Positions 197-31,147 of a stretch of DNA of 31,147 nucleotides are shown here, in pieces. Location: UHGV virus genome UHGV-0038737; one strand, written 5' to 3'. The translations under genes were made by a program, and so were the position numbers. Every line of letters starts with the position of its first letter. The first letter of the stretch is position 1. The notes below the pieces were generated by a model that was not told the origin of the DNA, did no database searches, and saw only the letters and a list, made by a program, of their open reading frames with translations. This stretch comes from a virus.

Positions 197-745
197 TCAG
201 CTAGCTGGAAACTTTTTATACAGAGTTGAGAGCCCTACTCCATACGTTTTTGATACGCTTTGTCGTGATTCACCGGTTGCCATCCGCTCCCCCATTTCCC
301 GCCATTGCTCATCCGTGAACTTAGGCCTGCGACCACCAACTCGCCCTTTTGCCCTGGCTACGGCCAGCCCTGCTAAGGTACGTTCGCTATTAAGATCAGA
401 TTCATATTGTGCTGCGGAAAGGATGTTACGAAAGTTATAGCGGCCGCTGGCTGTTTTGAGATCCACGCCATCGGTAATACTGCGGAAGTTGATACCCTTT
501 TCCTGTAACTGCTGGAACATCAACAGCGCATGCAGAACGTTGCGGCCTATCCTGTCCAGCTTCCAGACCACCAGTTCATCCCCCGGCTGCATAGTGGCGA
601 TCAGCCGTTTTAGAACCGGCCGATTCGATTTCCTCCCGCTGGCATGCTCTTCAAAAATTTTCTCACAACCCGCTGACTTGAGCGCCGTTAGTTGCAATTC
701 AGTGTCCTGGTGGTTTGTTGATACTCGGGCATAACCGTAAATCAT
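197..745 (-). CDS. Serine recombinase, DNA invertase of the Hin/Gin/Cin/Pin family
   Basis: N-terminus MIYGYARVSTNHQDTELQ with catalytic-serine context, resolvase-type core and C-terminal HTH (GESRQSVSKTYGVGLSTLYKKF). ATG at 745 preceded by AGGAG; the six-frame ORF extends to 790 but the internal Met aligns with the family N-terminus. Confidence 0.9.
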   Translation of the reverse strand: MIYGYARVSTNHQDTELQLTALKSAGCEKIFEEHASGRKSNRPVLKRLIATMQPGDELVVWKLDRIGRNVLHALLMFQQLQEKGINFRSITDGVDLKTASGRYNFRNILSAAQYESDLNSERTLAGLAVARAKGRVGGRRPKFTDEQWREMGERMATGESRQSVSKTYGVGLSTLYKKFPAS

Positions 746-804: not shown

Positions 805-1104
805 TTATAAAAAAGGTTGGTTTGGGAGGGATGGGGCAAACCTATAGCGCATCGCAAGATAACTCCTCAGAACCCTCCCCATGTTACGCAGGATCCAGTA
901 CCGGTTCTCGCTTTCGTTTGTCGTCTTATCGGCGAAGTCCGGCTGGTATCGCTCGATCCATGTATTTGCATCCGCCTGACTGAAATGCCAGTTCCTCTCC
1001 TGCAGTTCAGCGATGAACTTGTCTGTATGCAGACAGAGATAGCCCTTCGGGTTTTGCTGTATGGCCGCAATAAAAGCAGCACGAATATCCGGTTGACGAG
1101 GCAT
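805..1104 (-). CDS. Hypothetical 99-aa protein, divergent from the dinI-like gene and sharing its LexA box
   Basis: ORF MPRQPDIRAAFIAAIQQNPKGYLCLHTDKFIAELQERNWHF... with ATG at 1104 and GAGGG SD about 8 nt upstream. The LexA box lies 26 nt upstream. No family recognised. Confidence 0.5.
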   Translation of the reverse strand: MPRQPDIRAAFIAAIQQNPKGYLCLHTDKFIAELQERNWHFSQADANTWIERYQPDFADKTTNESENRYWILRNMGRVLRSYLAMRYRFAPSLPNQPFL

Positions 1105-1125: not shown

Positions 1126-1154
1126 TTGACTGTATGTATATACAGTAGTATTTT
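1126..1154. promoter_or_regulatory. LexA (SOS) box within a divergent promoter region
   Basis: CTGTATGTATATACAG at 1130-1145 fits the CTGT-N8-ACAG consensus, with flanks gaCTGT...ACAGta. For the plus-strand dinI-like gene it overlaps a candidate -35 TTGACT (1126-1131) and -10 TATTTT (1149-1154). Confidence 0.75.
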
Positions 1155-1203
1155 TATGAAAACAGATCAAGCACAGGCAGTTTTCACTTATAAGAGGATC
1201 GGT

Positions 1204-1443
1204 ATGTTTGTTGAACTGGTTTATGACAAGCGAAATGTTGAGGGGCTCGAAGGGGCCAGGGAGATCATTCTGGCCGAACTGACGAAGCGGGTGCACCAGA
1301 TTTTCCCTGGTGCCGAAGTGAAGGTAAAGCCGATGCAGGCGAACGCGCTAAACAGCAACTGCACGAAAACAGAGAAAGAACGGCTTAATCGTATGCTTGA
1401 AGAGATGTTTGAAGAATCTGACATGTGGCTGGTTGCTGATTAA
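1204..1443 (+). CDS. dinI: DinI-family DNA-damage-inducible protein
   Basis: MFVELVYDKRNVEGLEGAREIILAELTKRVHQIFPGAEVKVKPMQANALN...EEMFEESDMWLVAD matches the DinI pattern as recalled. RBS AAGAGGA; LexA box 59 nt upstream. Only the last 80 codons of the long six-frame ORF 817-1443 are taken as real. Confidence 0.85.
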   Translation: MFVELVYDKRNVEGLEGAREIILAELTKRVHQIFPGAEVKVKPMQANALNSNCTKTEKERLNRMLEEMFEESDMWLVAD

Positions 1444-1500: not shown

Positions 1501-1914
1501 TCACGCTGCGGGTTTTTCAGGCCACTGAATATCTGGCACGGTGATATCCAGCGCGTTCAGCGCATCACTGTAACTCAACCAGGCATGCAGGGCTGCGGTT
1601 TCTGAATCACTCAGTTTCATGCCCACCAGGATTTTTGTCTGCCATACAGAAATAGTCGGAGCGATTTCTGACAGCAACAGCCGCCGTTGATTTTCTGCTA
1701 TCGCCAGCGGGTCCAGTTCTGGCAGTTGTTCAATACGCGGTCCTTTCTCGTCAAATATGCCCGCGAATCCATCGGGAGGATTAAAAAACGCCAGATAGTC
1801 AGCCTCGCTCATCTCTTGCAAGTCCGCAGGTAGTGAGCCAGCCGCTTCATACGCAGACAGCATACCGTTATCGAGGTAAAATCCCTGCGTGCTGATGCTG
1901 TAAAAATATTTCAT
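1501..1914 (-). CDS. tfa: Tail fibre assembly protein (Tfa chaperone)
   Basis: MKYFYSISTQGFYLDNGMLSAYEAAGSLPADLQEMSEADYLAFFNPP... is typical of lambdoid/Mu-type Tfa. Start ATG 1 nt after the tail fibre stop. Confidence 0.85.
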   Translation of the reverse strand: MKYFYSISTQGFYLDNGMLSAYEAAGSLPADLQEMSEADYLAFFNPPDGFAGIFDEKGPRIEQLPELDPLAIAENQRRLLLSEIAPTISVWQTKILVGMKLSDSETAALHAWLSYSDALNALDITVPDIQWPEKPAA

Positions 1915-1915
1915 A

Positions 1916-2797
1916 TCAATACCCCATCACTCTTATATGAAAAAAAGGGACCCAGCCTGTCTGAGGAGTTTTAACGCTGACGGTTAAATATGTTGTTAAT
2001 AGCCCACTGCCATTATCTTTATCTCTGCATGTTTTAACATCAGCATTGTATCCGGGGGTTTGATTTCCAAATCTGTCGCCTGAAATGGACGCAACGGCAG
2101 TAATAATGCCGTTAGGTAATGCGACGGGGAGCGGCACTTTATAGTAGTGCGTATAATACGTAATACCTCCCACTGTCTGAGGGTTGTATGCTCCTACTGC
2201 GATGACGCCACCTATGAGGAAATCCATTTGATAAATATCGCCAATTTTTATCACGCTGGAGTTTGTTCCTGACCTGACATAGGTGATACCCAGATTGGAC
2301 AGCGCGGCGTCTCTGGTTGTCGCCCCGGTCCCTCCCTGGTCAATACTCAATGCTGTACTTAGCCCTTTCAGCTCTGTGATATCGCTATTTGCCCCTTTCC
2401 GGGCGAGACCACCGATGGCAGGAATGCTGAGGCTGGTGCCGTTGATTGTCACAGTGACCAGTTGGTTCGCTGAGGTACTGGCGAACGTTTCCCACGCACC
2501 GATATTCTCGTCATACTCATTGATGAGCTGAGACATGGCCTGTGCCAGTCCATCAACCGAGATAATGTCTGATACCAGAATGCCGTACTTCTGGCCGCTC
2601 AGCGCCGGGGAAGCAGCTGGAGTAACCGTCATTGACGTGGCGCTGTTCACGGATGAAATCTGGAACAGCTGCACCGGGTTAGACATCACGATAATTGTCT
2701 GCCCAGCGCGAACCTGGCTGGCCGGTGCCGTCCAGTTTGTGCCCGTCCCGGTGGCGGTATTTCCATTAATGGCGATGGTGCCGGTGTTATAAAGCAT
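1916..2797 (-). CDS. Side tail fibre protein
   Basis: Contains the conserved fibre motif LSIDQGGTGATTRDAALSNLG and Gly/Thr/Ser-rich beta-type composition. ATG at 2797 with GGAG RBS (the ORF track starts at TTG 2812). A Tfa gene follows directly. Confidence 0.8.
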   Translation of the reverse strand: MLYNTGTIAINGNTATGTGTNWTAPASQVRAGQTIIVMSNPVQLFQISSVNSATSMTVTPAASPALSGQKYGILVSDIISVDGLAQAMSQLINEYDENIGAWETFASTSANQLVTVTINGTSLSIPAIGGLARKGANSDITELKGLSTALSIDQGGTGATTRDAALSNLGITYVRSGTNSSVIKIGDIYQMDFLIGGVIAVGAYNPQTVGGITYYTHYYKVPLPVALPNGIITAVASISGDRFGNQTPGYNADVKTCRDKDNGSGLLTTYLTVSVKTPQTGWVPFFHIRVMGY

Positions 2798-2812
2798 ATT
2801 TTCTCCAGGCAA

Positions 2813-3202: not shown

Positions 3203-3877
3203 TCAATCATAGGCCGCTGTATTTATGGCGGTTAATGAAATGCCAGTATTCGTTCCCCCTCCAGGTGAACCTGCCCCAGTGGAGGTCCCCCCTGCGTTTA
3301 TCCTCGTATTGGCCCCGTCAAACCTGCATGAAGAATAAGCATTTATCGTGTAGATAGTCGGAGGCTGGGTTGAATTATTCACAATGATGGTCTGACCCAA
3401 CTGAGCAGGTGCAACGGCCCATGACCCGCTCAGCGTCTGGTCAATATTTATCCCGCCGTTTGCACCAGGCGTGCCAACCGTCTGCAGGTCTGATAGCACA
3501 CGGGACTCATTAGTTAACACAAGCTTTCCGCTCGCATCCCATATTGCCAAACCCCATTTCGGTAATATCTGCGGGAATATGGCAAAAACGTACGCCGTTA
3601 AAGTGAAACTTTGGTTGTAGGGATTAACACCAGCAACATACACATTACCGCCGTTCCTGTAAGACATAACCGGAGTGGGCTGTGCTGTATTGGTGGTTTT
3701 GATAAAAACCATCACTGGGTAATCAGCGTTTAAAGCGATATTTTGAGCAACCTGCTGAGAACTGCCATTCGCGGATGAATTGAAGGTATACTTCCCGTAA
3801 AGACAGAAAGGCGTTGATTGTGGCGTTACAAAGGGATTCCCGTTATCCATTAATATCATCGCGCCAAATTCGGCCAT
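3203..3877 (-). CDS. Hypothetical tail-region protein (224 aa)
   Basis: ORF translationally coupled to the upstream gene (TAATG overlap at 3877). Gly/Asn/Thr-rich beta-type composition, downstream of J. Function unknown. Confidence 0.6.
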   Translation of the reverse strand: MAEFGAMILMDNGNPFVTPQSTPFCLYGKYTFNSSANGSSQQVAQNIALNADYPVMVFIKTTNTAQPTPVMSYRNGGNVYVAGVNPYNQSFTLTAYVFAIFPQILPKWGLAIWDASGKLVLTNESRVLSDLQTVGTPGANGGINIDQTLSGSWAVAPAQLGQTIIVNNSTQPPTIYTINAYSSCRFDGANTRINAGGTSTGAGSPGGGTNTGISLTAINTAAYD

Positions 3878-7683: not shown

Positions 7684-8274
7684 CTACTGCTGATCTTCGA
7701 CATAAATTCCGGCAGAAATAATTGCCCCGCCGATTCTCCGGCGGCCGTACAGGAGCGGAACCGGGTAACCCTGTGCGGCGGTATTTGTGACTCCGCCGAA
7801 CGCGTATGAGGCGCGGTTATCTGAGCTCTGTTTGCTGGCCAGCCCCGCTGGTTGAGGGGAAAGCATCTGAACAACCCCGCCAATCATCATTGCGGCACCG
7901 AATTTGTATAAGAATGGTGATGCCGCAGCCCAGGGTGTGAAATTAAGCACCGCCCCAACGGCAACCAGAACTGCACCAAGTATTGTCTGGAGTAATCCGG
8001 CCTTTTTGCTCCCGATAATCACCGGGACAATGCGAATGACATCGCCGGTGACCGGGTAACCCAGGTCATCAACACCAATATTCTTTTTCCCTTTGAATAC
8101 TGAATAAGTGAGACCACGGCGTTGGCTGGAAATCATAAACTGCTCAAAGCCCGGTATAGTCTTTGCCAGCGCAACACTCGCTTCGTTCACGCGGGAAATC
8201 AGGCGATGGTGAACTTTACCGAATGTTTTCCCGAGCACGCCGCCAAGCTCAATCCGGGTCATTACTTCCTGCAT
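7684..8274 (-). CDS. I: Tail assembly protein I
   Basis: MTRIELGGVLGKTFG... and the C-terminal hydrophobic Gly/Ala-rich region resemble lambda gpI. Alternative start at 8262 overlaps the K stop as TAATG. Confidence 0.85.
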   Translation of the reverse strand: MQEVMTRIELGGVLGKTFGKVHHRLISRVNEASVALAKTIPGFEQFMISSQRRGLTYSVFKGKKNIGVDDLGYPVTGDVIRIVPVIIGSKKAGLLQTILGAVLVAVGAVLNFTPWAAASPFLYKFGAAMMIGGVVQMLSPQPAGLASKQSSDNRASYAFGGVTNTAAQGYPVPLLYGRRRIGGAIISAGIYVEDQQ

Positions 8275-10099: not shown

Positions 10100-12616
10100 T
10101 TACCTGCGATTGGTCGCATTCCAGATAAGCCCACCGGGCTGGATTGCCCTGGCGATACCCTCGTTGACAGATTTGTTAATCACCTGCTGATACGCCTTAC
10201 CCAGCCTGTCTCCGTCGTTTTGCTGCTGTGCGTTACCGGAAGCATTCTCGACCGTCACCGGCGCGTACACGCTCACCCCGAAAGGTGCTGCAGCGGGACC
10301 TGTACCACCGCCCCCGACATACCCACCCGTGGCATACCCTTTCATCATCCGGTAAAGATTGCCGACGCCGATCCGGCTGGTAGCCTCTTTGGTGAAAACA
10401 AATTCACCACGGTGAACGACACCTGCAGGTTCATATTTCCCGCCTGAACCGGTATAACCGCCACCTGCAAATCCCAGCGCGGTTGTCGCTGAATCCACCA
10501 GGCCTACCATCGCCTGTTTCAGCAGGATCTGTGTCAGCATGGAGAGCGTGGAGCGGGTGAAGTCAGCCCAGTCAGCCTTACCGCGCGTCAGCATGTCAGC
10601 CATATTTTGCCCGATTCCATCAAACGTACTGGTAGCAGCCGACTTCATCTGGCCATAAGCATCTGAAGCAGAATCAACATAATCTGCCCATGCGGATTTG
10701 GCCCCGGATTGCCAGTCGTCCCGCAGCTTATCCTGCTCGGCGTAATACGCCTGCAGCGCCTGCAACTCATTCTGATAACCAGCGTCGTTCTCCGAACCGC
10801 CACCATTTTTCCACCCCTGAAGAAGCTGGGCCTCCTCGTTGCGGCGTTGTGCTGCACGACTGCTCATACCAGCACTTTCCGCCAGGGCCCTGGTTTTCTC
10901 GCCGATCTGCGTGACGTATTTTTGGGACGTATCCTGCAGGCGGTTAAGCCGCTCCTGCGCCACTATCTGATCGCCAAGCTTCGCGTTCAGCTCTGCACGG
11001 GAAAGCACCTCGCTTTTACTGGCCAGCAGGGATTTTTCCTCAGCAGAAAGCGTCCGGGTCTTCGCGGCCTCTTCCAGAACTGTAAACCGGGACTGTTGAC
11101 GCCACAGCTCCTGACGCTGCTGACTGATGGTGTCATTTATCCCCTTATGCTCCTGCAGGGTGCGCAACTGTGCCTGCAGCTCCAGCGTCTGGGCGCTGGC
11201 CGTATCGGTTGCACGGGCACCTGCGGGGGTTCTGATTGCCGGGGTCTTCTTCGGCTTTTTAAGGGTGTCTTCGTACTCTTTTTTCGCGGCAGCCAGGTTG
11301 ATGTTGTAGTCAGCCTGGAGGATTCGCCCCTCTTTCAGCGCCTTGTTGAGCTCGCTCTGCCTGGCCGTGTATTTCTCCAGTGCCGTCTGCGTTTTGGCAT
11401 AGTTTGCCTGAGCCTGCGCAGCATACTTCTGGCGATCCGATTCCGCAGCCGCTTCGCGCGAAGCATTCTCTTCATTCGCCCTGGCAATTCCCGCCTGCTG
11501 CTGAGCCATGTCCAGCGCCAGCCTGGCCGTTTCGCGATCATTCCAGAATCGGGCGCGGGCCTCATCATTGACATATCGGTCACCTTTACGCAGGTTCCAG
11601 ATTTCATCGGCTTTTTTGAACGCGGCTTCGGCTTTTGCCACCATCTCCTGCGCGGTGTCAGGTCGGCCAATATCGAGGGCTGCATCCCACATCGACTTGA
11701 AGGCGCGCCTCAGGGAGTCCGCTGAAGACTCTATCGTCCCCATATTGTCGCGGATGGCTTTGGTCTGATCGTTGAATCCGGCTGTAGCCGCCTCGTTAGC
11801 CGCCTGCAGTGCGCCAGCCTCATCACCGGCACGCTGCAGCTGCGCCACATGGGCAATCTGTTCTGCGGTAACGTTATGGAACTGCTGGGCCATCGCGATC
11901 AGGCCCGATGTCGGGTCAGTTGCGAGCTTGCCGTAGGCTGCAGCGACTTTCTCCACCGGCACGCCGGAGGCATCAGTAAACCGCGCCACCGCCTGGCTCA
12001 TTTCATCAAAGCGCGAGCCAGTACGCACACCTGCATTGATAAGCTCGGTCAGGGCTTCACTGGTCTGGTTGAACGTTAGCCCCGCTGCCTGTCCGTTCCG
12101 CGCCAGTGCCAGCATGCGGTCAGCTGTCAGTCCGGCTGTGTTCCCCGACAGTACCAGCGTTTTGTTGAAATCAGACAGAGTGGAAGAGCCATGGTACCAG
12201 GCATAGAACAACGCGCCCGTTGCAACGGACAATGCACCAATGCCGACCATCAACGGGGAAATCGTCCCCAGTAACGCCCGGAATGTCGGAATGATCCCGC
12301 CAAAGGAGTCCTTAACCTGACCGCCCTGCTGAAGCAGAATCAGCCAGGGGTTCTGCCCACCCGCCAGCTGCGTGGCCACGTCAGTAAACTGCGCCGGGAG
12401 CATACGCATCGCTGCGTTATACTGACCCACTGAAATACCGGCCTTACGCGCGGCGTTCTCCTGGCGGCTGAAGGACTGCTGGATACGTAACGCTTCATCG
12501 TTTGCCGTATTGCCGGTCTGTTTTAATTCTTTTTTGACGTAGCTGAGCTGCTCGTTGAATTTTGTCGAGTTAACGTCAAGGTTAACGACCAGATCACCGA
12601 CTGCCGTCTGGGCCAT
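10100..12616 (-). CDS. H: Tail tape measure protein H
   Basis: 838 aa, Ala/Gln-rich coiled-coil composition with a Gly-rich C-terminus. Strong AGGAGG RBS. Confidence 0.9.
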   Translation of the reverse strand: MAQTAVGDLVVNLDVNSTKFNEQLSYVKKELKQTGNTANDEALRIQQSFSRQENAARKAGISVGQYNAAMRMLPAQFTDVATQLAGGQNPWLILLQQGGQVKDSFGGIIPTFRALLGTISPLMVGIGALSVATGALFYAWYHGSSTLSDFNKTLVLSGNTAGLTADRMLALARNGQAAGLTFNQTSEALTELINAGVRTGSRFDEMSQAVARFTDASGVPVEKVAAAYGKLATDPTSGLIAMAQQFHNVTAEQIAHVAQLQRAGDEAGALQAANEAATAGFNDQTKAIRDNMGTIESSADSLRRAFKSMWDAALDIGRPDTAQEMVAKAEAAFKKADEIWNLRKGDRYVNDEARARFWNDRETARLALDMAQQQAGIARANEENASREAAAESDRQKYAAQAQANYAKTQTALEKYTARQSELNKALKEGRILQADYNINLAAAKKEYEDTLKKPKKTPAIRTPAGARATDTASAQTLELQAQLRTLQEHKGINDTISQQRQELWRQQSRFTVLEEAAKTRTLSAEEKSLLASKSEVLSRAELNAKLGDQIVAQERLNRLQDTSQKYVTQIGEKTRALAESAGMSSRAAQRRNEEAQLLQGWKNGGGSENDAGYQNELQALQAYYAEQDKLRDDWQSGAKSAWADYVDSASDAYGQMKSAATSTFDGIGQNMADMLTRGKADWADFTRSTLSMLTQILLKQAMVGLVDSATTALGFAGGGYTGSGGKYEPAGVVHRGEFVFTKEATSRIGVGNLYRMMKGYATGGYVGGGGTGPAAAPFGVSVYAPVTVENASGNAQQQNDGDRLGKAYQQVINKSVNEGIARAIQPGGLIWNATNRR

Positions 12617-22391: not shown

Positions 22392-22911
22392 TCAGCAACC
22401 CCGGTATTATTTCATCCAGCGCAGCTGCTTTGTTCATGGCTTTAATGATGTCCTTCTTGAGGAAATCAATATGTCGGTTTTCCAGCTCCGGGAAGCGCCG
22501 CTGAACCGACAGAGGAACTCCATCAAGAATGCTGGCTACTTCTCCGGCCATCCGCGACAGCACGAACGTGCAGAATGCGGTTTCCACCACCTCAGCGGAA
22601 TCTTTTGCATTTTTTAGTTCCTGGGCATCTGCCTGCGCTCGGGTGAGGCGGTGACGCTCATAGTCAATCGTACCAGGCTGAAGGTCGGATTCCGATGCAA
22701 GACGAAGGTCTTCCACCTCCTTCCGTAATTTCTCATTCTCAATCGCCGCGTCGCGTGCGGAATACCATTCGATAGCCGCGGAAGATTCATAGAGGACCTC
22801 ATTACCTTTTCCACCGCCACGTGCTACAGGCATTCCCTGATCCTGCCAGTTCTGAATGGTTCGCACGCTGACCCCAAATATTTCAGAAAGACGCTTTTTG
22901 TTGACCTCCAT
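22366..22911 (-). CDS. Nu1: Terminase small subunit Nu1
   Basis: MEVNKKRLSEIFGVSVRTIQNWQDQGMPVARGGGKGNEVLY... is near-identical to lambda Nu1 (181 aa). Confidence 0.95.
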   Translation of the reverse strand: MEVNKKRLSEIFGVSVRTIQNWQDQGMPVARGGGKGNEVLYESSAAIEWYSARDAAIENEKLRKEVEDLRLASESDLQPGTIDYERHRLTRAQADAQELKNAKDSAEVVETAFCTFVLSRMAGEVASILDGVPLSVQRRFPELENRHIDFLKKDIIKAMNKAAALDEIIPGLLSEYIEQSG

Positions 22912-23110
22912 AGCTCACTCCATACACAAAAACAGAGAAAGGAAACGCCCTCTGGCTATTTAGCCGTTTTTAAGGCTTATCATTTCCTTTCTTTTCAGGG
23001 GTGTTTACAGTTAAAACAATGAATTAGCGAGAAGAAGAACGGAAACGGCAAATGCCTGAAAATTTTCATAAATAGCGAGAATCTGCGCGGACGCCGCCCC
23101 GTAACAGGGC
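22912..23110 (-). other. cos packaging site (cosN and cosB region)
   Basis: The minus strand reads ACGGGGCGGCGTCCGCGCAGATTCTCGCTATTTATGAAAATTTTC...CGTTTCCTTTCTCTGTTTTTGT...ATG(Nu1), collinear with the lambda left end as recalled. The 12-nt cohesive-end equivalent GGGCGGCGTCCG is at 23088-23099. Confidence 0.7.
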
Positions 23111-23267
23111 GGATCGCCGGAAAGGACCCGAAAAGATAATGATTATCAATTGCAAGTTATTCCCTTCAAGATAATGCCACCTGGACGGCAATGGCATTGG
23201 CCCGTGTCTGTAATCCATTCATCGGCTGCTTTTTAAGCTCAGATGTATTGCTTTTTGTTTTGCAGAA

Positions 23268-23504
23268 CTACCACCTTGTTACTGCAATCGGAATTGGTTT
23301 CCTGGTAGAGTTCCAAACCCAAATTTTCAGTGGAGGATGGACGGTCATTTTATCCCGTAAAAAATCGCCTGTTGCTGTATCTGGAATGTTTTCAGACTCA
23401 GCAAAACTGATTGATGCCGGGTCTAAAACAGATATCAGTGCGCTATTCGTACCATCCGTTATTTGAACTGGCTCACTACCGATTGTCATTCTTTCTGTTG
23501 CCAT
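23268..23504 (-). CDS. Hypothetical protein (78 aa)
   Basis: ORF MATERMTIGSEPVQITDG... with ATG at 23504 immediately after a G8 tract (the ORF track starts at 23597). Last gene of a three-gene cluster. Confidence 0.45.
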   Translation of the reverse strand: MATERMTIGSEPVQITDGTNSALISVLDPASISFAESENIPDTATGDFLRDKMTVHPPLKIWVWNSTRKPIPIAVTRW

Positions 23505-23507
23505 GTG

Positions 23508-23515
23508 CCCCCCCC
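23508..23515 (-). repeat. G8 homopolymer tract (C8 on plus strand) in the RBS region of the 78-aa ORF
   Basis: Minus strand TAG-GGGGGGG-CAC-ATG: the tract begins in the stop of the 94-aa gene and ends 3 nt before the next ATG. Confidence 0.9.
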
Positions 23516-23799
23516 TACGCCAGTACGTATTCAGGTGTTGATGGATTGATGATAAATTTCTGCGCAGCTTCAGGTATGAGGCCATAGATAACATCAATGT
23601 GATAACCGTCCTTTAGGGTCGGCTCCTTTATCACATTTCCGGCCTCGTCATATTCACCGTCACTGTTATACAGAACGCCCCGCACAGAAAACTGAATAGA
23701 CTTAGTCGGTACTGCCCATCCAGCCCCCTCAGACCACCAACCAGTGGCTGCTCTCGCAGTAGCCTCATCAGGGAATCGTAAATATGTCAGCCTGCTCAT
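23515..23799 (-). CDS. Hypothetical protein (94 aa)
   Basis: ORF MSRLTYLRFPDEATARAATGWWSEGAGW... with start overlapping the stop of the upstream 356-aa gene. No family recognised. Confidence 0.5.
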   Translation of the reverse strand: MSRLTYLRFPDEATARAATGWWSEGAGWAVPTKSIQFSVRGVLYNSDGEYDEAGNVIKEPTLKDGYHIDVIYGLIPEAAQKFIINPSTPEYVLA

Positions 23800-24869
23800 T
23801 ATCTTATGTACTCGATTCGTTGGATGTAGCGCTTACCCCAGTCAGTCGTTGATGCTGGTATTTCAACCTCTTCTGCACCGCCAAAATCGATTTGCTTGGT
23901 CGTTGCGTCGCTATAGTGCAAACGCACAGAGGTTGCAATTCTGCTGGGGTTCTTGATGTTCGCAAAAGCCTTGGATCGTGTTGCAGCAGCGCTGGATGCA
24001 ATGATTGGTGATGTTGAACAGGGATTATCTTCAAGCTGCAGTGTTGCAAACTCCAGAGAATATGATGAATCTCCAACGTAGGTTTCGCCACCGGGTGTGA
24101 TACTGGTTGATGGCCCCATATAGATTATATAGGAAGGTGACTTTACGGATTTTGTCGCAATAACAGTCCCGGAAAACCGTATTACGCCGGGAGAGATAAA
24201 CTCTGCGGTTGTAGTGAGTCCATCAGAAATACCGGTGAATGACACTGACGCATCAGAGATATTTATTACAGATAAAATCTGCGCATCAACAATCAATTGG
24301 TGCGCTAAAATGACAAATGCATACCCTCTCGACTTCTCTGTTTTTTGAATAAAACCGCTAAAGCTGTACTTCTTTCCCGCCGTAACTTTCTGCGGACATG
24401 CAGCGTAGTGTGGCCCTTCCAAATTAGATTCTGTAAGCCTGAATGTCGGGGTATTCAGTATTCTTTCTGCGGAATTACTTATTGCCGCACGCACTGCCCC
24501 TACCCCCCCCGTATAGTAGGTGTTGGTCGCCTGCACTTCAGGCTCATGCCTTCCAACTGCCACACCATTTCGGTACTCAAGCGGCCATACGTCAGGTGCA
24601 GCGAACTGAATAGTTCCGTCAGCTGAGTAGTATGCATGGTTGCTTGCGCAGCTGAACGAAACCCGATAATCCAGTGCAGAGGAGGTAAGATCGATATCGC
24701 TAAGGTCAACCCACTCGCCAGGCGGCAGCGTCATAACATTAGCACCGGGAATAACTATGCCGGATGGAAAACTATCTGATGATGCGCCAAGCTCAGTCAC
24801 ATCAGGGATAAATAAGCCTTTCATAATTGCACCACAAGCGATGATAAATATTTCAAATAAAACCGGCAT
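23799..24869 (-). CDS. Hypothetical beta-rich protein (356 aa; start could be Met16 at 24824)
   Basis: Long ORF with Ser/Thr/Gly-rich composition and no recognisable catalytic or nucleotide-binding motif. Hydrophobic N-terminus. Contains an in-frame G8 tract. Confidence 0.55.
   Translation of the reverse strand: MPVLFEIFIIACGAIMKGLFIPDVTELGASSDSFPSGIVIPGANVMTLPPGEWVDLSDIDLTSSALDYRVSFSCASNHAYYSADGTIQFAAPDVWPLEYRNGVAVGRHEPEVQATNTYYTGGVGAVRAAISNSAERILNTPTFRLTESNLEGPHYAACPQKVTAGKKYSFSGFIQKTEKSRGYAFVILAHQLIVDAQILSVINISDASVSFTGISDGLTTTAEFISPGVIRFSGTVIATKSVKSPSYIIYMGPSTSITPGGETYVGDSSYSLEFATLQLEDNPCSTSPIIASSAAATRSKAFANIKNPSRIATSVRLHYSDATTKQIDFGGAEEVEIPASTTDWGKRYIQRIEYIR
24503..24510 (-). repeat. G8 homopolymer tract inside the 356-aa coding sequence
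   Basis: Coding strand ACG GGG GGG GTA (T-G-G-V). Eight consecutive G. Confidence 0.9.
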
Positions 24870-24923
24870 AGGCCACGCTATTTCATGGCTCTGGTTTTCT
24901 CTATTAAGGAGCTTCTGTAATGG

Positions 24924-25181
24924 CTACTTCGTTTTTGCTTCCGCTCTTTTACGGCGGCGCTCTTCTTTCTTCTCGGCGTTTGCCATGTCCATGAATGCCT
25001 GCATGATCGAGTTCCTCATCATGTAACTTACAAAGTGATGATTGACGCAGCCGTTGAGACGGAGTTGCTCGCCAAACTGATCAACCGAGGCCAGCACCTG
25101 CATCATGTCCTTCTCACCTTTCATGAACTCTGAGAAGTCGCGCCCCGCTCTGGAGGCGCATTCTATTATTCGGGTGCTCAT
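24924..25181 (-). CDS. Hypothetical small protein with basic C-terminus (85 aa)
   Basis: ORF MSTRIIECASRAGRDFSEF...KKEERRRKRAEAKTK. ATG at 25181 overlaps the KilA-N gene stop (TGATCATGA). Confidence 0.45.
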   Translation of the reverse strand: MSTRIIECASRAGRDFSEFMKGEKDMMQVLASVDQFGEQLRLNGCVNHHFVSYMMRNSIMQAFMDMANAEKKEERRRKRAEAKTK

Positions 25182-25183
25182 GA

Positions 25184-25912
25184 TCAGGCCGCCGCATAGA
25201 GCAATTTCATCTGCCCTTTTACCTGGAATGCCGACATGCAACGCGCTTCGAAATCACGATAATCAGAGCACCCATTGGCAATGCTGGTAACGGCAATGAT
25301 CTGTCGCTCAACCAATGTCAGCGCGTCAGGTTTAAGGTGCTGATGGATTTTGTCTCCCGCAGCCAGCCGTCTTTTAACCTCTGCATATACTTCTGGTGGT
25401 AATACCGGGCCATATACCCACTTGGCACTGATCATCCCAAATAGTGCGGGGCGACGACCTGGTCGATGACGGGGCAGCCCTGACATTTTGAACATCGCAG
25501 AATAAAACGGATCGCTAAACCTCTTTTCCCATGGCTGAGATTTATCCAGAAGGAAAATAGCCTTTATTCTTTCATCGTCGATATGATGAACGGAACCCTG
25601 AATGATTGCGTCAATTTGCTCATCACACCAGATCTCAAAATCTACAGAAAGCCATCGAGCAAATCTGACCGCCAGTTTTGGGTGAAGCCATGTTCCGCCG
25701 CCACGGTCTTTGCGAGCGCGGCTGGTTTTTACATATGTGATATTCCCATATCTACTCTTTAACGCCTCGATGTAACGGACAGTCTCAGGAAGCCTAAGCC
25801 ACTGAGCCGGCTCCTTGTTGAACTTGTCAGCTGCCGCAGTCGCGTCAAACCAGCCATCGTCAGAAAAACGCATGGGATGGCCTTCGAAATCAATCGGGAT
25901 GATATTGGACAT
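25184..25912 (-). CDS. KilA-N domain protein (Bro-N/KilA-N N-terminus, P63C-like C-terminus)
   Basis: MSNIIPIDFEGHPMRFSDDGWFDATAAADKFNKEPAQWLRLPETVRYIEAL is a typical KilA-N N-terminus. The ORF track extends to 25987 and the upstream Met cannot be excluded. Confidence 0.7.
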   Translation of the reverse strand: MSNIIPIDFEGHPMRFSDDGWFDATAAADKFNKEPAQWLRLPETVRYIEALKSRYGNITYVKTSRARKDRGGGTWLHPKLAVRFARWLSVDFEIWCDEQIDAIIQGSVHHIDDERIKAIFLLDKSQPWEKRFSDPFYSAMFKMSGLPRHRPGRRPALFGMISAKWVYGPVLPPEVYAEVKRRLAAGDKIHQHLKPDALTLVERQIIAVTSIANGCSDYRDFEARCMSAFQVKGQMKLLYAAA

Positions 25913-26061
25913 CGTATTTACCTTTTTGGTGATATGAGCCAGTTCTCGCAGACATGGACAGCCCAAGAGCGGCACGATGTAAGCCACCGTCCTGTCTCTG
26001 TCTCATATCCCGAAAAGCTCTTGGTTGATATGCGCACGAGAATGCGCGGTTTACTGCGGAT

Positions 26062-26088
26062 ATAAAAAAGCCCCGCATAGGCGAGGCT
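26062..26088 (-). terminator. Rho-independent terminator after the protease gene
   Basis: Minus-strand RNA GCCUCGC-CUAU-GCGGGGC (one G-U pair) followed by UUUUUUAUAU, 19 nt after the stop at 26107. Confidence 0.55.
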
Positions 26089-26106
26089 GGAATCAGACAG
26101 GGGGGA

Positions 26107-27009
26107 TTAAGACTGGATATTCCAAATCATTGCGTTACCGTTATGATTTTCAATGATTTTTGCCAGTGGTGCTCCACCAAAAGAATGCATGTAGCTGTGA
26201 TGTATAGTCAAAACCAAATCTTGAAGTACTTGATCACTTTCAAGTTCGGTAACATTCAACCCAATTTTCTGCGCCTTATCAAAATGAATATGACGCGAGT
26301 GGGTATAGGTTGTGTGATGGTTGTTTAACTCTGAACAAACATGTGTTGCTTTTGATTCTGCCTCAGGATCATTATCAAACATGCCTGTCATAAGCCAATG
26401 CTTAACAATCTCATTTGCCCATTTGATTGCTTTCTCACACTCGCCGATGATCGTCGGGTTTAGCTTTTGAAGAATGAACTGCCACATCTGAACAGCTGCG
26501 GGATTTTGAAAAATTTCCGTCTGCGCACGATTCCATTCTTCAATGATGGCATGGGTGGAGAAACCGTTGAACTGAGGATCAATTGGGCCAATGTTGGACT
26601 GTTTACCCATGATGATTTCATTGGCACAACATGCAAGCATAGTTCCGCAGGACATTGAAATCATAGGAACAATTGCTCTGATGTTAGTTCCAAACTTCGA
26701 CCTTAAGTAATGCCCGATTGATTCCAAAGCGGCAATATCACCACCTGGAGTATGAAGTATCAAATCCAACCCTTTTGATACATCTAAACCATTGATGGCT
26801 GTCATCAACCCGTTCTTATCATCATCAGTCATCTGAGTAAGATGGCGTACTTCTGCACCACCATGCTGTAACCACCCTGAGTAATATGTGATTACATTTC
26901 TTCCAGTATGATTCGAAAGTTGAGATAAGTATTTACGGCGAACCTCATCCATAGGACTTTTATGGGCGAGAGCCGTTATCTCGCCCAGTACGTCGCTCCA
27001 ATTAGGCAT
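26107..27009 (-). CDS. ClpP-fold serine protease, SDH / S49-like family
   Basis: Motifs GLDLILHTPGGDIAALESIGHYLRSKFG, IRAIVPMISMSCGTMLACCANEIIMG and GPIDPQ are characteristic of the ClpP/crotonase-fold SDH serine proteinase family as recalled. AT-rich gene, translationally coupled to the upstream small ORF. Confidence 0.8.
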   Translation of the reverse strand: MPNWSDVLGEITALAHKSPMDEVRRKYLSQLSNHTGRNVITYYSGWLQHGGAEVRHLTQMTDDDKNGLMTAINGLDVSKGLDLILHTPGGDIAALESIGHYLRSKFGTNIRAIVPMISMSCGTMLACCANEIIMGKQSNIGPIDPQFNGFSTHAIIEEWNRAQTEIFQNPAAVQMWQFILQKLNPTIIGECEKAIKWANEIVKHWLMTGMFDNDPEAESKATHVCSELNNHHTTYTHSRHIHFDKAQKIGLNVTELESDQVLQDLVLTIHHSYMHSFGGAPLAKIIENHNGNAMIWNIQS

Positions 27010-27012
27010 AAA

Positions 27013-27213
27013 TCAGTACGTGTAAAGTTGATGACTTGTAGTTTGGTTTTGCTTCGATTGTGTAGCGGTACCTTGTGAGTACCAAACACCTGTGTTTCCA
27101 CTCGTACTAGTTTGCTGTGCCATTACACGAGAAGCGAAGTTGTTAACAGTTTCACCAGTCAACATTTCTGCCGGTTTGATATTGTAAACATCGTAGAACT
27201 CAGCTGGGGTCAT
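27013..27213 (-). CDS. Small protein (66 aa) with Gln/Ser/Thr-rich tail, first gene of the protease operon
   Basis: ORF MTPAEFYDVYNIKPAEMLTGETVNNFASRVMAQQTSTSGNTGVWYSQGTATQSKQNQTTSHQLYTY. Strong RBS AAAGGAG 8 nt upstream. Stop 3 nt before the protease ATG. Confidence 0.6.
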   Translation of the reverse strand: MTPAEFYDVYNIKPAEMLTGETVNNFASRVMAQQTSTSGNTGVWYSQGTATQSKQNQTTSHQLYTY

Positions 27214-27235
27214 AATGATAGCTCCTTTTATAGCG

Positions 27236-27296
27236 CTACATATAGTGCCTGTGCCAAGGGGGACATACTATATGTGCCATTGTTGTCATATTTAAA
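27236..27296 (-). promoter_or_regulatory. Putative promoter/operator region of the small-protein/protease operon
   Basis: Lies between an upstream terminator and the RBS. Contains repeated TGGCAC and ATATAGT-like motifs and candidate -35 (ATGACA) and -10 (TATAGT) elements. Exact promoter not resolved. Confidence 0.3.
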
Positions 27297-27302
27297 TGTG
27301 CA

Positions 27303-27324
27303 AAAAGCCTCAAAAGAGGCTTGA
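27303..27324 (-). terminator. Rho-independent terminator insulating the lysis cassette from the downstream moron
   Basis: Minus-strand RNA AAGCCUC-UUUU-GAGGCUU followed by UUUGCACAUUU. Confidence 0.5.
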
Positions 27325-27583
27325 AAAAGATGCAAAAATACTATCTATGACGTGACTATAGCTACTTACCCACAGTTTATACAAGCCAAAAATGCTAAAT
27401 TCAGATAATCCTATTCGCTGAAAAACTACACAAAAGCTACGTTCATCTTGTCATTAGATAACGTCAGTAACTTTCACTGGATCTAAGCCATTGGTGAAAA
27501 AGCTAATTGCATGATGAAGCACTGTAATGTAGCAGTTGAGGTTGTTAAATGAGAATCACCCTAACAATGTCAACGGACATTAT

Positions 27584-28099
27584 TCATTTTCGTAACTTCT
27601 CAATCTCTCGTATACCCGCCAGGTTATTGTTGCCCTTCTCAATAACAGCCAGCAAAGGTTCAATCCAGAGGACGGCCTGGCAATACGTCATTGAGCTGGC
27701 GGCAGCGGTACTATCATCGGTTGCGTTAGTGTTCCCGGTATCGGGGTGCATTGCGCTGGCACGTAAACGGTACGCGTATTTGAGCAGCCCACCAGCGACA
27801 TCAGCAGGAACAGGCAGATCACAGGTCTTTTCACGTCGGAGAATCTCCCGGTATTCGATGACAGTTTCTTCGGTGCTGGTGTCGATCAGGGAGTTTAGCC
27901 TGTTGGCATGTTCTGCAACCTGATTGAATCGATTGAAGTTGAATGCCTGGGTGGCGATCACCTGCCCCTGCATAGAGTTGTCACTTCGCAGAACGTCGTT
28001 ATCGCTCTGAAGGCGACTGGCGTTGGAGCAACTCTTAGCGAGAGCGACCGAAAGGACAGCAATAACAACAACGCCTATAAGACCCGGATTAATTTTCAT
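27584..28099 (-). CDS. Rz: Rz-like inner-membrane spanin (i-spanin)
   Basis: MKINPGLIGVVVIAVLSVALA N-terminal transmembrane segment then coiled-coil-like region. Starts 1 nt after the endolysin stop. Confidence 0.75.
   Translation of the reverse strand: MKINPGLIGVVVIAVLSVALAKSCSNASRLQSDNDVLRSDNSMQGQVIATQAFNFNRFNQVAEHANRLNSLIDTSTEETVIEYREILRREKTCDLPVPADVAGGLLKYAYRLRASAMHPDTGNTNATDDSTAAASSMTYCQAVLWIEPLLAVIEKGNNNLAGIREIEKLRK
27688..27834 (-). CDS. Rz1: Rz1-like outer-membrane lipoprotein spanin (o-spanin), embedded in Rz, GTG start
   Basis: In the +1 frame inside Rz: (M)KRPVICLFLLMSLVGCSNTRTVYVPAQCTPIPGTLTQPMIVPLPPAQ*, with lipobox LVG-C, Pro-rich mature part and GGGAG upstream. Found by hand translation; not in the ORF track. 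Confidence 0.6.
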   Translation of the reverse strand: MKRPVICLFLLMSLVGCSNTRTVYVPAQCTPIPGTLTQPMIVPLPPAQ

Positions 28100-28644
28100 T
28101 GGTCTAACCCCCAGCACGCCAGCGCGCTTTCCTGGTCCCGTCGCTCAACCTGACCATAGCAGCCATTCTTCTGGCCTTTGGTTAGACGACAATCACGGCC
28201 ACCGTCTTTAATCCACCAGCGGATTGCCTCGCATGCACCGATGCGGTCACCTGCGTTGATGCGCTTATAGAAGGTCGATGGGAAGCATTTACCGGGGCCG
28301 ATGTTATATGGGCAGAAAGAAGCGATACCCGCTTTCTGTGGTTCGGTCAGTGGTACTTTGATATTTCGGTCAACCCACGCCAGCGCCTTGTCGCGTTCAA
28401 TGGCGTTTACCTGGGCGCATTTCTCAGCTGACAGCTTCATGCCCTGTACTACTGGCTTGCCATCAACCATTGTTGCACCACGGCAAATGGTCCAGAGTCC
28501 GCCGCCGTCGCGATATGCTGTCAAGCTGTTACCCTCTTTCTCATCCAGAAACTGATCGAGAATCACGGGTGCGGAAGCCCCGGCAAGAATCAAACCAACG
28601 ACCGCTGCGCTCAATTTATTCTTCAGCTTTAGAGACATAGCCAT
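28096..28644 (-). CDS. Endolysin, T4-lysozyme-like (GH24), with N-terminal signal-anchor-release (SAR) segment
   Basis: MAMSLKLKNKLSAAVVGLILAGASAPVILDQ then DEKEGNSLTAYRDGGGLWTICRG (Glu-Asp-Thr catalytic pattern). Confidence 0.9.
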   Translation of the reverse strand: MAMSLKLKNKLSAAVVGLILAGASAPVILDQFLDEKEGNSLTAYRDGGGLWTICRGATMVDGKPVVQGMKLSAEKCAQVNAIERDKALAWVDRNIKVPLTEPQKAGIASFCPYNIGPGKCFPSTFYKRINAGDRIGACEAIRWWIKDGGRDCRLTKGQKNGCYGQVERRDQESALACWGLDQ

Positions 28645-28894
28645 TGCGCCGATCCTCCCGTTCTTTCCAGCGGAAATACCAGTTCACTGCACAGGTGATT
28701 ACCGTGCATGCGATACCGACAATAATTGCCCAGTCGCTCAGGCTTAACCCTGCAATTCTGTCGGCCAACATCCAGGACACCTCTTTTGCTGTTTTAGCTG
28801 TTTCGGCGTATGCCTTCGCTGATACACCGCAGCCGGTCAGCGTGGTGCCTGTTCCATATGAAAGTCTGCTGTAAATGGTGCTCATTCTGGTCAT
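28616..28894 (-). CDS. Holin (probable pinholin partner of the SAR endolysin) with dual-start motif
   Basis: MTRMSTIYS... (Met1-Thr-Arg-Met4) with transmembrane segment LSDWAIIVGIACTVITCAVNWYF and charged C-terminus. Strong SD GGAGGTGA. Overlaps the endolysin start. Confidence 0.65.
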   Translation of the reverse strand: MTRMSTIYSRLSYGTGTTLTGCGVSAKAYAETAKTAKEVSWMLADRIAGLSLSDWAIIVGIACTVITCAVNWYFRWKEREDRRNGYVSKAEE

Positions 28895-29329
28895 AGCCTC
28901 ACCTCCGATTCTTCGGATGGCGCTGTGTGTGTATGAAAAGGGTCAGGCTTCACGGGCTGGATTTATCAACAAAGCACGTAGCGGATGATCCCCGAGAGGC
29001 CTGAAATAGAAAAGATAGGGCGTACCGGTCAAGATGGCGTGTCGCGTTGAGCTTTCGCTGTTATGATCCTAGTCTGGATTAGTTGCGGCGCCGGCGCTTA
29101 TTATTGGTTTGCCTCATAGGTCTGCATTTCACAGCAATTGAAAGAGTATTCCTCACAGGCCTTGTGCTGCACATCCAAACGCTCTGTCCATTGCGAAAAT
29201 ATCTTGCGATAAGAAGTAATTAAATTTTGACTTTTCATTAGATAAATGAATTTCTGATTGAGGATACTTTCACTAAATGAGATTTTAATGACGAATCTGA
29301 AAGATCAAATTACCTAAAGGATAATCAAA

Positions 29330-29827
29330 GTGAACAATTTTATTCAAGCTTTAGATGTTTCGATTAAAACCCAAAATTGGTACTCAGTATTATTTATATC
29401 GCTTACGCTGCCAGACATTTTCGGGAAGATTGATGAACCAAACAAAGGATCGCAGGCAAGAACTGTTAATTGGTACAACAAGTACATGAAAGATATGTAT
29501 ACACATCATATCGGCCCCGATCGCCTAGAGCATACATTCCTAAGCGGCAACGACTTTTATGCACTTCGCTGCGCATATCTTCACGAAGGAAGTGACGATA
29601 TTAGAAATCAGAGTGCTCAAGATGTTTTAGAAAAATTTGAATTCGTCCAGCCAATAAGTAATCAAAGCCTACACTGCAACCAATTTAATCAAATGCTTCT
29701 ACTGCAGGTTGATCGATTTGGGAAAGATGTGATGTCAGCTGTTGGCTCATGGCTAAAAGATATTGAGGGTGATGTAGAAAAAACAAACAAACTCAATGAG
29801 TTATTAAAAATAAAAATAATACCATGA
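29330..29827 (+). CDS. Hypothetical 165-aa protein, antisense AT-rich moron between Q and the holin; possible HEPN-like fold
   Basis: GTG start with AAAGGA RBS. Very AT-rich relative to flanking phage DNA. Contains an R-x4-H motif (R80-CAYL-H85). Confidence 0.55.
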   Translation: MNNFIQALDVSIKTQNWYSVLFISLTLPDIFGKIDEPNKGSQARTVNWYNKYMKDMYTHHIGPDRLEHTFLSGNDFYALRCAYLHEGSDDIRNQSAQDVLEKFEFVQPISNQSLHCNQFNQMLLLQVDRFGKDVMSAVGSWLKDIEGDVEKTNKLNELLKIKIIP

Positions 29828-29892
29828 GTAAATATTATTTAGTATTGATCTCGAATTCGATGAAACTAACTTACTGAGCGCACCCTTACCTC

Positions 29893-29930
29893 TAAAAACT
29901 AAAAAGCCCAAGGCGCTAACCTCGGGCTTA
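29893..29930 (-). terminator. Late terminator (tR'-like) downstream of Q
   Basis: Minus-strand RNA AAGCCCGAGG-UUAGCG-CCUUGGGCUU followed by UUUUUAGUUUUUAG, about 70 nt after the Q stop. Confidence 0.6.
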
Positions 29931-29997
29931 AAAACTCATTTACTGCCTGTGCATACAACAATGGCACAATATCAGATTTACACGAAATGTAAGCTAT

Positions 29998-30687
29998 TTA
30001 ATTGACTTTTGCAATACCCTGCTGGGAATAAGTCGCCTTTTGTTGTGATCGTGTTCTCACAGTGCAAAGCAGAGATTCGCTATCGAGCCCCTTAAAGATG
30101 CTGCACATAACTCGCCAGTAGTCCGCGTAATTGTGGCTCCAGTTGTCCGGTTTGACACCACACATAGCAGCTAAGTCCTGTTGCTGATAAACATCACGAC
30201 CAGCCAGTTCCGCCTTCACATCCTGCGCAGCCAGCCAGATTAATGCCTTCAGGCGCTCCAGGGTTTTCCCAGCTATTTTGCGCGCCCCCATCTGGGACTT
30301 GAATTCATCCCACGCCCACTGAGTAATCAACACCTGATTATCCCAGCGCACATTCTCGCTGTAGTTCCATAACAGCCACGCCTTTTGGTGTTCTTCGAGT
30401 GACATCAGTGCGCGGCGCCACGATGAGGTGGAGTATTCAACCGGCTGCACCAGCGGAATATGCGATCCCTTAGCATGCGACTGTTTACCGGGGATTGGCG
30501 GGTTATCCAGAGTTATCATCTCGCCAGTAACCTCATCCTTCACCTTCATCTTCTTCCGCTTAAAGGTACCGGTATCGAACTGCGCGTTCTCAAGCCAGGC
30601 CATTAACTGCCCTTTCGTCGCACCACTCAGATCGGCGGTGGCCACTATCAGCTGCTGGCGCACGTATTCGAGAAATTGAGTGTTCAT
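29998..30687 (-). CDS. Q: Late-gene antiterminator Q-like protein
   Basis: 229-aa ORF in the canonical position between rusA/ylcG and the late terminator/lysis genes. Assignment is mainly positional. Confidence 0.6.
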   Translation of the reverse strand: MNTQFLEYVRQQLIVATADLSGATKGQLMAWLENAQFDTGTFKRKKMKVKDEVTGEMITLDNPPIPGKQSHAKGSHIPLVQPVEYSTSSWRRALMSLEEHQKAWLLWNYSENVRWDNQVLITQWAWDEFKSQMGARKIAGKTLERLKALIWLAAQDVKAELAGRDVYQQQDLAAMCGVKPDNWSHNYADYWRVMCSIFKGLDSESLLCTVRTRSQQKATYSQQGIAKVN

Positions 30688-30821
30688 ACAGCACCGCCTA
30701 TGGTTTTGATGTAGTTCTTCAGTATTCGGTAGTCCGTCAGCACAGAGCCGGGGAAATGGTATAAGCGCAATCGCTGCCAGCGAACGCGGAGGTGATCGGC
30801 AAAGTAGGATTCGAATGTCAT
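30684..30821 (-). CDS. ylcG: YlcG-like small protein (45 aa)
   Basis: [49 protein letters not shown] overlaps at both ends (rusA stop and Q start). Resembles DLP12 YlcG as recalled. Not in the ORF track. Confidence 0.55.
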
Positions 30822-31147
30822 GCGGACTCCAGTTCAGTAATGGTCAGTTCAAGTCTGCCGCCTTTGACGACCGGCATTCTCTTCACGCTGTAGTAGTCGA
30901 CTTGTTGGTCATCGAGCCAGAACCCGGATTTCGTCAGGGCGTCGAACGCGGCCTTTTGCAGATTGTCCAGGTCGCGGCGGCGGCGATCCGGCATATGGCA
31001 CTCAATGCGTATTTTCACGGGTGTAGCCAGGCCGATATCCAGCATTGAGTCTTTGATGATTCTGGCGACACTGTCGCGGTACGCCTGCCCCTCTGTGCTG
31101 ATGTGCGTGCGCCCGCGGTTATGCCGGTAGTAGCGGTTGTTGCTCGG
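30818..31147 (-). CDS. rusA: Holliday junction resolvase RusA (5' end beyond the window edge)
   Basis: ...[75 protein letters not shown] matches the RusA C-terminal two-thirds. The frame stays open to position 31147. Confidence 0.9.

Follow-up and report, generated by a model that had tools for sequence, protein, structure and literature searches.

The Escherichia coli genes uvrA and ssb form a divergent pair with one common LexA box. Both genes have been given the same heterology index (PMC8072944). Among phages, the record of phiKO2 (NC_005857) shows a DinI gene (gp22) beside a tail-fibre gene, together with a divergent SOS-type gene (gp23, UmuD-like), and annotates a 'lexA binding site' and overlapping divergent promoters between gp22 and gp23. 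A passage of PMC7556043 states that the dinI-like gene of phiKO2 is LexA-regulated, and the same paper places a LexA box upstream of a dinI-like gene in Serratia phage OS31. In phage phi80 (JX871397), which carries cor, a tail fibre, a dinI-like gene, a pin-type invertase, attP and int, a predicted LexA site is annotated ~40 nt upstream of the dinI-like gene dinL. [quoted passage not shown] Nalidixic acid induces the Gifsy dinI homologues 4.6- to 23-fold (PMC8072944). The Gifsy operon carries an antirepressor because the Gifsy repressors are not cleaved.

We analyzed a related arrangement in a 31,147-nucleotide stretch of DNA, referred to below as the window. Positions 700-1600 are 100% identical to Enterobacteria phage HK225 (NC_019717) and are identical also in prophages of E. 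coli ECCRA-119 and YZMc10-2. Identity with HK225 starts at the att core (60-76), and positions 1-59 are unlike the phage record; the window is therefore an integrated HK225-like lambdoid prophage of E. coli. Its distal 8 kb (22893-31147, beyond the cos junction) contains three blocks, from the lysis region, that are 81-94% identical to HK225, and this patchy similarity indicates that the prophage is a mosaic relative of HK225 and not HK225 itself. Read from the attachment site, the gene order is pin-type invertase, a 99-aa ORF (HK225 gp28), a DinI-family gene, tail-fibre assembly and tail fibre. The features of this end of the prophage are as follows.

197-745, minus strand: pin-type DNA invertase, the first gene from the attachment site
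805-1104, minus strand: leftward ORF of 99 aa (HK225 gp28), with Shine-Dalgarno GAGGGT at 1116-1111
868-1104, minus strand: conserved 79-aa core of gp28 (phrog_3893, predicted winged-helix)
805-867, minus strand: non-homologous 20-aa tail of gp28, at a recombination junction
807-832, minus strand: hix/gix-like invertase crossover site CCCTCCCAAACCAACCTTTTTTATAA, adjoining the pin-type invertase
1204-1443, plus strand: DinI-family gene, 79 aa (PF06183), with Shine-Dalgarno AAGAGGA at 1192-1198
1459-1486, no strand assigned: 9-bp GC-rich hairpin in the RNA fold of 1380-1500, between the convergent dinI and tail-fibre-assembly genes
1501-1914, minus strand: tail-fibre assembly gene, convergent with the dinI-like gene
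1916-2812, minus strand: tail-fibre gene, following the tail-fibre assembly gene

The tail-fibre end is the usual position for such cassettes in HK97-, phi80- and N15-like phages. On the HK225 map the module occupies 21.4-22.1 kb and CI 33.3-34.1 kb, a separation of about 11-12 kb, and in the integrated ECCRA-119 prophage the module is ~36 kb from the immunity region; both distances agree with an earlier remark, made in a first-pass annotation of this DNA, that an SOS-responsive module here would lie far from the immunity region.

That annotation had also proposed that the divergent pair shares a near-consensus SOS box, which was said to overlap the promoter of the dinI-like gene. The elements that we assign to the interval between the two genes are listed below.

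1128-1147, no strand assigned: predicted LexA operator (SOS box), the 20-mer GACTGTATGTATATACAGTA, with a 16-mer core CTGT-N8-ACAG at 1130-1145
1126-1131, plus strand: -35 hexamer TTGACT of the rightward (dinI) promoter, from a promoter scan, kept in 26 of 28 intergenic sequences
1149-1154, plus strand: -10 hexamer TATTTT of the rightward (dinI) promoter, from the same scan, after a 17-nt spacer
1165-1170, minus strand: -35 hexamer TTGATC of the predicted leftward promoter, with CAGATCAAG conserved in the gp28-dinI intergenic alignment
1142-1147, minus strand: putative -10 hexamer TACTGT of the leftward promoter, placed by its 17-nt spacing to TTGATC

The box core, CTGTATGTATATACAG, is found exactly at 1130-1145 and, as the annotation had it, begins 26 nt upstream of the ATG of the 805-1104 ORF on the minus strand. 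The 20-mer GACTGTATGTATATACAGTA agrees with the LexA consensus TACTGTATATATATACAGTA at 18 of 20 positions. Scoring with a LexA position weight matrix had been suggested as a check, and on a symmetrised, approximate matrix built from 30 E. coli LexA operators, GACTGTATGTATATACAGTA obtains 24.9 of 30.25 bits. Ranked with these training operators it would come 4th, and the recA operator scores lower (22.5 bits). As a control, the maximum score in 200 Markov-1 sequences of 31 kb each averaged 10.7 (sd 2.4), with a top value of 21.4. The description of the site as near-consensus is thus well founded, and the score, far beyond random expectation, indicates that CTGTATGTATATACAG is not a chance match. 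An AT-rich-centred palindrome scoring inside the range of proven operators, it has the properties of an E. coli-type LexA operator.

The next best site within the window reaches 12.0 bits, leaving 1128-1147 as its sole strong LexA site. CTGT-N8-ACAG occurs twice in the window (0.34 copies expected), and the second copy (12136-12151) was rejected as a LexA site on account of its GC-rich centre and chance-level score. Elsewhere in HK225, and in the ECCRA-119 prophage along its right arm, both immunity regions included, no site exceeds 13.6 bits. The sequence at that value is a weak LexA-like site, TCCTGTGAATTTGTTCAGTT, outside the window in the interval between cII and the replication genes of the ECCRA-119 prophage (8088-8107 of locus L120); it barely exceeds random expectation and is probably a chance match.

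The promoter scan returned 1126-1154, the span marked in the first-pass annotation, exactly as a sigma-70-like promoter, TTGACT-17-TATTTT. The box occupies the end of the rightward -35 hexamer plus most of the spacer, so that the overlap with the dinI promoter suggested earlier holds for both its -35 and its spacer. On the opposite strand, the predicted -10 hexamer TACTGT is the right arm of the LexA box itself. The arrangement TTGATC-17-TACTGT recurs across the gp28 loci compared, and most of the dinI-less gp28 loci shown, otherwise unrelated in their upstream sequence, have TTGATC ~17 nt ahead of the box. With these assignments, transcription would start near 1161 on the plus strand and near 1135 on the minus strand. 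The two predicted promoters overlap almost totally and point apart, and both predicted -10 hexamers (TATTTT and TACTGT) are weak. Relative to these predicted promoters, the box is placed where bound LexA would occlude transcription.

We then compared the interval in 28 distinct gp28-dinI intergenic sequences. The block ATTGACTGTAT...ATACAGTAGTATTTTT, with both half-sites, shows next to no variation, and the same is true of the CAGATCAAG block, of both Shine-Dalgarno sequences and of both -35 and both -10 regions; the block ACAGTAGTATTTTT around the rightward -10 is conserved. Variation is seen at the central bases of the box and in the flanks. Retention of the CTGT and ACAG arms with a drifting centre is the pattern expected of a LexA operator within two promoters, and the box is conserved beyond neutral expectation in these orthologous regions. 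Each gene family was also followed on its own. For close DinI homologues in viral contigs, 55 of 57 distinct upstream regions contain a box of at least 15 bits; these boxes end 14-17 or 40-57 nt before the ATG and sit in several promoter layouts. For phrog_3893, sampled in different species, a box of at least 17 bits ends 14-24 nt before the ATG at 28 of 32 loci, and dinI is the divergent neighbour at only 7 of the 32. Of the four box-less loci, one is truncated by a contig end, two encode distant partial homologues and one has the gene order reversed. Because boxes precede each family independently, dinI and phrog_3893 are each probably SOS genes in their own right, and in the HK225 lineage the two genes appear, from these alignments, to share one operator. 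In one IMG/VR contig (L079), whose gp28 is 44% identical, there are two adjacent LexA boxes, GCTGGATAAAAACACAGTA and TACTGTATATCCAACCAGTA, one per gene.

Promoters commonly hold short AT-rich palindromes, and the gene adjacent to this one encodes a possible winged-helix DNA-binding protein, so the palindrome might be thought a coincidence or the operator of a phage-encoded regulator instead of LexA. We regard this as scarcely credible, given that the score lies so far above random, that the conserved positions are the LexA-contacted CTGT/ACAG arms, that E. coli LexA consensus boxes recur before both gene families in unrelated promoter contexts, and that the immunity regions contain no similar site.

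It is instead very probable, on this comparative evidence, that 1128-1147 is a functional host-LexA operator, set inside two back-to-back promoters and silencing both genes until DNA damage; the interpretation offered in the first-pass annotation thereby has strong comparative support. A single LexA dimer would cover the rightward -35 and spacer together with the leftward -10 and start site and so would shut both genes off in the undamaged lysogen. Upon DNA damage, activated RecA would promote LexA self-cleavage, leading to expression of the dinI-like and leftward genes. Once made, the DinI-like protein would act on RecA filaments, binding them and modulating their co-protease activity. The leftward product is a predicted winged-helix protein whose translation is coupled, in relatives, to that of a HumD-family UmuD'-like protein. 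In the HK225-type prophage, a pin-type invertase cassette has taken the place of the gene for that UmuD'-like partner.

Compared with the described systems, the HK225 box is an unannotated instance of an arrangement that is already annotated in related phages. The resemblance to phiKO2 extends to the position of the DinI gene beside a tail-fibre gene and to the divergent SOS-type gene, but in phiKO2 the UmuD-like gene is itself divergent and the 79-aa gene is absent, whereas HK225 has the 79-aa gene and no UmuD-like gene; in addition, the annotated phiKO2 LexA site lies downstream of the dinI -10, and the HK225 site lies in the spacer. Phage phi80 shares the gene neighbourhood at the tail fibre, and its invertase protein is 99% identical to that of the window, but it has no phrog_3893 gene and contains pseudogene fragments between dinL and pinL. 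HK140, mEp390 and Flotzy have a cassette of dinI, LexA box, 79-aa gene and humD-like gene, in which both divergent promoters and the box are retained at 80-90% DNA identity and the 79-aa gene is 78-95% identical to that of HK225. These phages keep a UmuD'-like gene overlapping the 79-aa stop, which HK225 is without. The HK140, Flotzy and HK225 records bear no LexA-site feature in the stretches examined. The Gifsy operon is unidirectional and is located 1.3 kb downstream of replication genes, in contrast to the divergent module at the tail-fibre end of HK225. The uvrA-ssb pair likewise has one operator for two divergent genes, but these are host repair genes, and their promoters are farther apart with less overlap.

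The rightward gene was called dinI-like in the first pass, and its product matches Pfam DinI (PF06183) with E = 5e-22 and 78.4 bits (cut-off 24.2) over positions 2-63 of the 63-position profile. The protein also matches phrog_189, RecA filament binding protein DinI, and aligns with E. coli DinI (1GHH, E = 3.8e-6), keeping the acidic C-terminal helix. It scores 37.9 bits against the NCBIfam DinI equivalog NF007893, under the cut-off of 111, and is therefore a phage/MsgA-type paralogue, not an orthologue of chromosomal E. coli DinI. The GenBank start for HK225 dinI, ATG 1156 (95 aa), was rejected: it abuts the -10 hexamer and is ATA, ATT or GTG in relatives. The true start is likely ATG 1204, which has a good Shine-Dalgarno sequence and gives a product of 79 aa. 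Beyond the gene, the hairpin at 1459-1486 is a probable terminator, although it lacks a strong U-tract. A DinR-like sRNA at the 3' end of the phage dinI mRNA, an idea taken from PMC10907235, was considered and set aside (no Rfam match; unremarkable fold, z = -1.15).

The leftward gene had been described as a divergent 99-aa ORF. An ORF of that length is indeed present at 805-1104 on the minus strand, but it is really a 79-aa family gene with an acquired 20-aa tail. The first 79 residues match the uncharacterised family phrog_3893 (E = 2.4e-42). Almost all homologues have a length of precisely 79 aa and the C-terminus NMGRV[FH], and gp28 itself retains the whole core, at 94-95% identity to full-length family members. 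When 1.8 billion representatives were searched with a profile, only a small family of 160 clusters was returned, with no informative domain fusion. Searches of PHROGs, Pfam and NCBIfam gave the leftward protein no annotated match; within Pfam and NCBIfam, the 79-aa protein produced one sub-threshold WVELL match only. It had no match among PDB sequences, no similarity to E. coli LexA by hhalign, and no homologue by tblastn in phage P1, a humD carrier. A structural model of moderate confidence (pLDDT 75) predicts a winged-helix fold, and the best Foldseek hit of this model to the PDB (E = 0.27) is not significant.

The genomic context of the family is more informative. An ORF whose product begins MGFPSPAxDYxE, the N-terminus of processed UmuD', follows the 79-aa gene in HK140, Flotzy, SZQ1 and the majority of the 32 species sampled; its start codon and the stop codon of the 79-aa gene overlap as ATGA. 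The 129-aa form of this UmuD'-like protein, found in HK140, matches NCBIfam HumD NF051876 (2e-66). UmuD'-like proteins of 105-107 aa are often encoded downstream of the 79-aa gene in related loci outside the window (L007, L008, L010, L011, L013-L015, L031 and L033, at about 3240-3560); these have no Pfam match, S24 included, and keep the N-terminal arm MGFPSPAxDYxE. They look like an uncharacterised short form of UmuD'-like protein, different from the HumD type of 129 aa. In three metagenome representatives (P0136, P0228 and P0260), the 79-aa domain runs straight into an ...MGFPSPA... UmuD'-like domain in one polypeptide. As natural fusions these would speak for a functional link between the two; the alternative is that they are frameshift artefacts.

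The window differs in that no UmuD'-like gene lies under the LexA box, and the gp28 ORF enters DNA of the invertase cassette. Positions 745-828 match the E. coli SZQ1 pin cassette, which abuts an invertible tfa/tfa' segment there, with 100% identity, and the homology stops at 828, inside the hix-like site. This site, CCCTCCCAAACCAACCTTTTTTATAA, resembles hixL at 18 of 26 positions. The 42-nt junction that follows (829-870) supplies the 20-aa tail of gp28. No partner crossover site for CCCTCCCAAACCAACCTTTTTTATAA was found within the window, and this, together with the break in homology inside the site, makes the pin-type invertase look orphaned. The crossover site marks the junction at which the humD-like gene gave way to the pin-type cassette. 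The possibility that the SOS module itself lies in an invertible segment was discarded, as neither a partner crossover site nor a long inverted repeat was found. A match of locus L020 into the 20-aa tail was spurious: a normal stop codon is present there, followed by a humD-like gene.

These observations bear on whether LexA governs dinI alone, with the 99-aa ORF being a decaying remnant of a two-gene operon for which regulation is irrelevant. The prophage is without the humD-like partner that nearly all relatives possess, the ORF runs into 20 foreign codons, and the exact gp28/pin junction is present in only 2 of 5426 complete E. coli genomes, all of which would fit such decay. However, the 79-aa core has stayed whole, the gene keeps its Shine-Dalgarno sequence, its ATG and its leftward promoter elements, and metagenomes contain similar tailed proteins, one of 99 aa (98% identical) and one of 97 aa with the same tail on a core that is only 61% identical, which suggests that the tailed form persists. 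We therefore consider control of dinI alone unlikely, though it is the most serious competitor to a shared operator. Whether or not it is still regulated, the HK225 leftward gene may no longer be functional, because of its foreign 20-aa tail and the missing usual partner.

A different role for the leftward gene is suggested by the Gifsy prophages, in which dinI homologues have been shown to be linked to small antirepressors under LexA control (PMC3121763). The leftward gene is small, LexA-boxed and functionally unassigned, with a winged-helix-like fold predicted, and it could by analogy encode an SOS-induced antirepressor like Gifsy GfoA/GftA, 186 Tum or N15 AntC, making the module an induction switch sited away from the immunity region. 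Several features make this very improbable. HK225 CI (gp46) combines an HTH with a Peptidase_S24 self-cleavage domain (E = 1.1e-15), in contrast to the uncleaved Gifsy repressors, and the repressor of the ECCRA-119 prophage carries a LexA-family annotation; with such repressors, neither prophage needs an antirepressor. The Gifsy antirepressor gene is downstream of dinI in the same operon, and here a hairpin and a convergent gene are found instead. Moreover, the 79-aa family is coupled to a UmuD'-like gene in almost every genome, including loci at which no other phage gene was noticed (context was surveyed unsystematically), and this near-constant coupling indicates a RecA- or translesion-related role.

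The same coupling raises a broader and more speculative proposal, namely that the phrog_3893 winged-helix gene and its UmuD'-like partner constitute an SOS cassette that is widespread, though so far undescribed, in temperate phages and chromosomes of enterobacteria, a LexA/UmuDAb-type architecture split into two coupled polypeptides. Constant coupling with the ATGA overlap, a LexA box in 28 of 32 species, and the apparent natural fusions of the 79-aa domain to MGFPSPA... speak for it, and we found no description of a LexA-boxed two-gene cassette of this kind in the literature searched. The lack of sequence similarity to LexA, the moderate model confidence (pLDDT 75) and the chance that the fusions are frameshift artefacts speak against it, and on balance we hold the proposal to be doubtful. 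If it were true, the N-terminal winged-helix and C-terminal S24-like domains would reside on separate polypeptides, the small protein would serve the UmuD'-like protein, or RecA, as a dedicated partner or regulator, in a loose parallel to DdrR and UmuDAb of Acinetobacter, and HK225 would hold the winged-helix half alone, still under LexA control.

Given that LexA control is already accepted in related phages, the single instance in HK225 adds little by itself. If the module is LexA-controlled, host DNA damage would directly switch on two accessory genes at the tail-fibre end, independently of CI cleavage and lytic development and probably earlier. The phage DinI could change the duration of RecA activity, with possible effects on prophage induction, SOS mutagenesis and the antibiotic responses of the lysogen. 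Beyond this prophage, the 79-aa family is almost always LexA-boxed and UmuD'-coupled across Enterobacteriaceae, which makes it a candidate new component of the SOS regulon.
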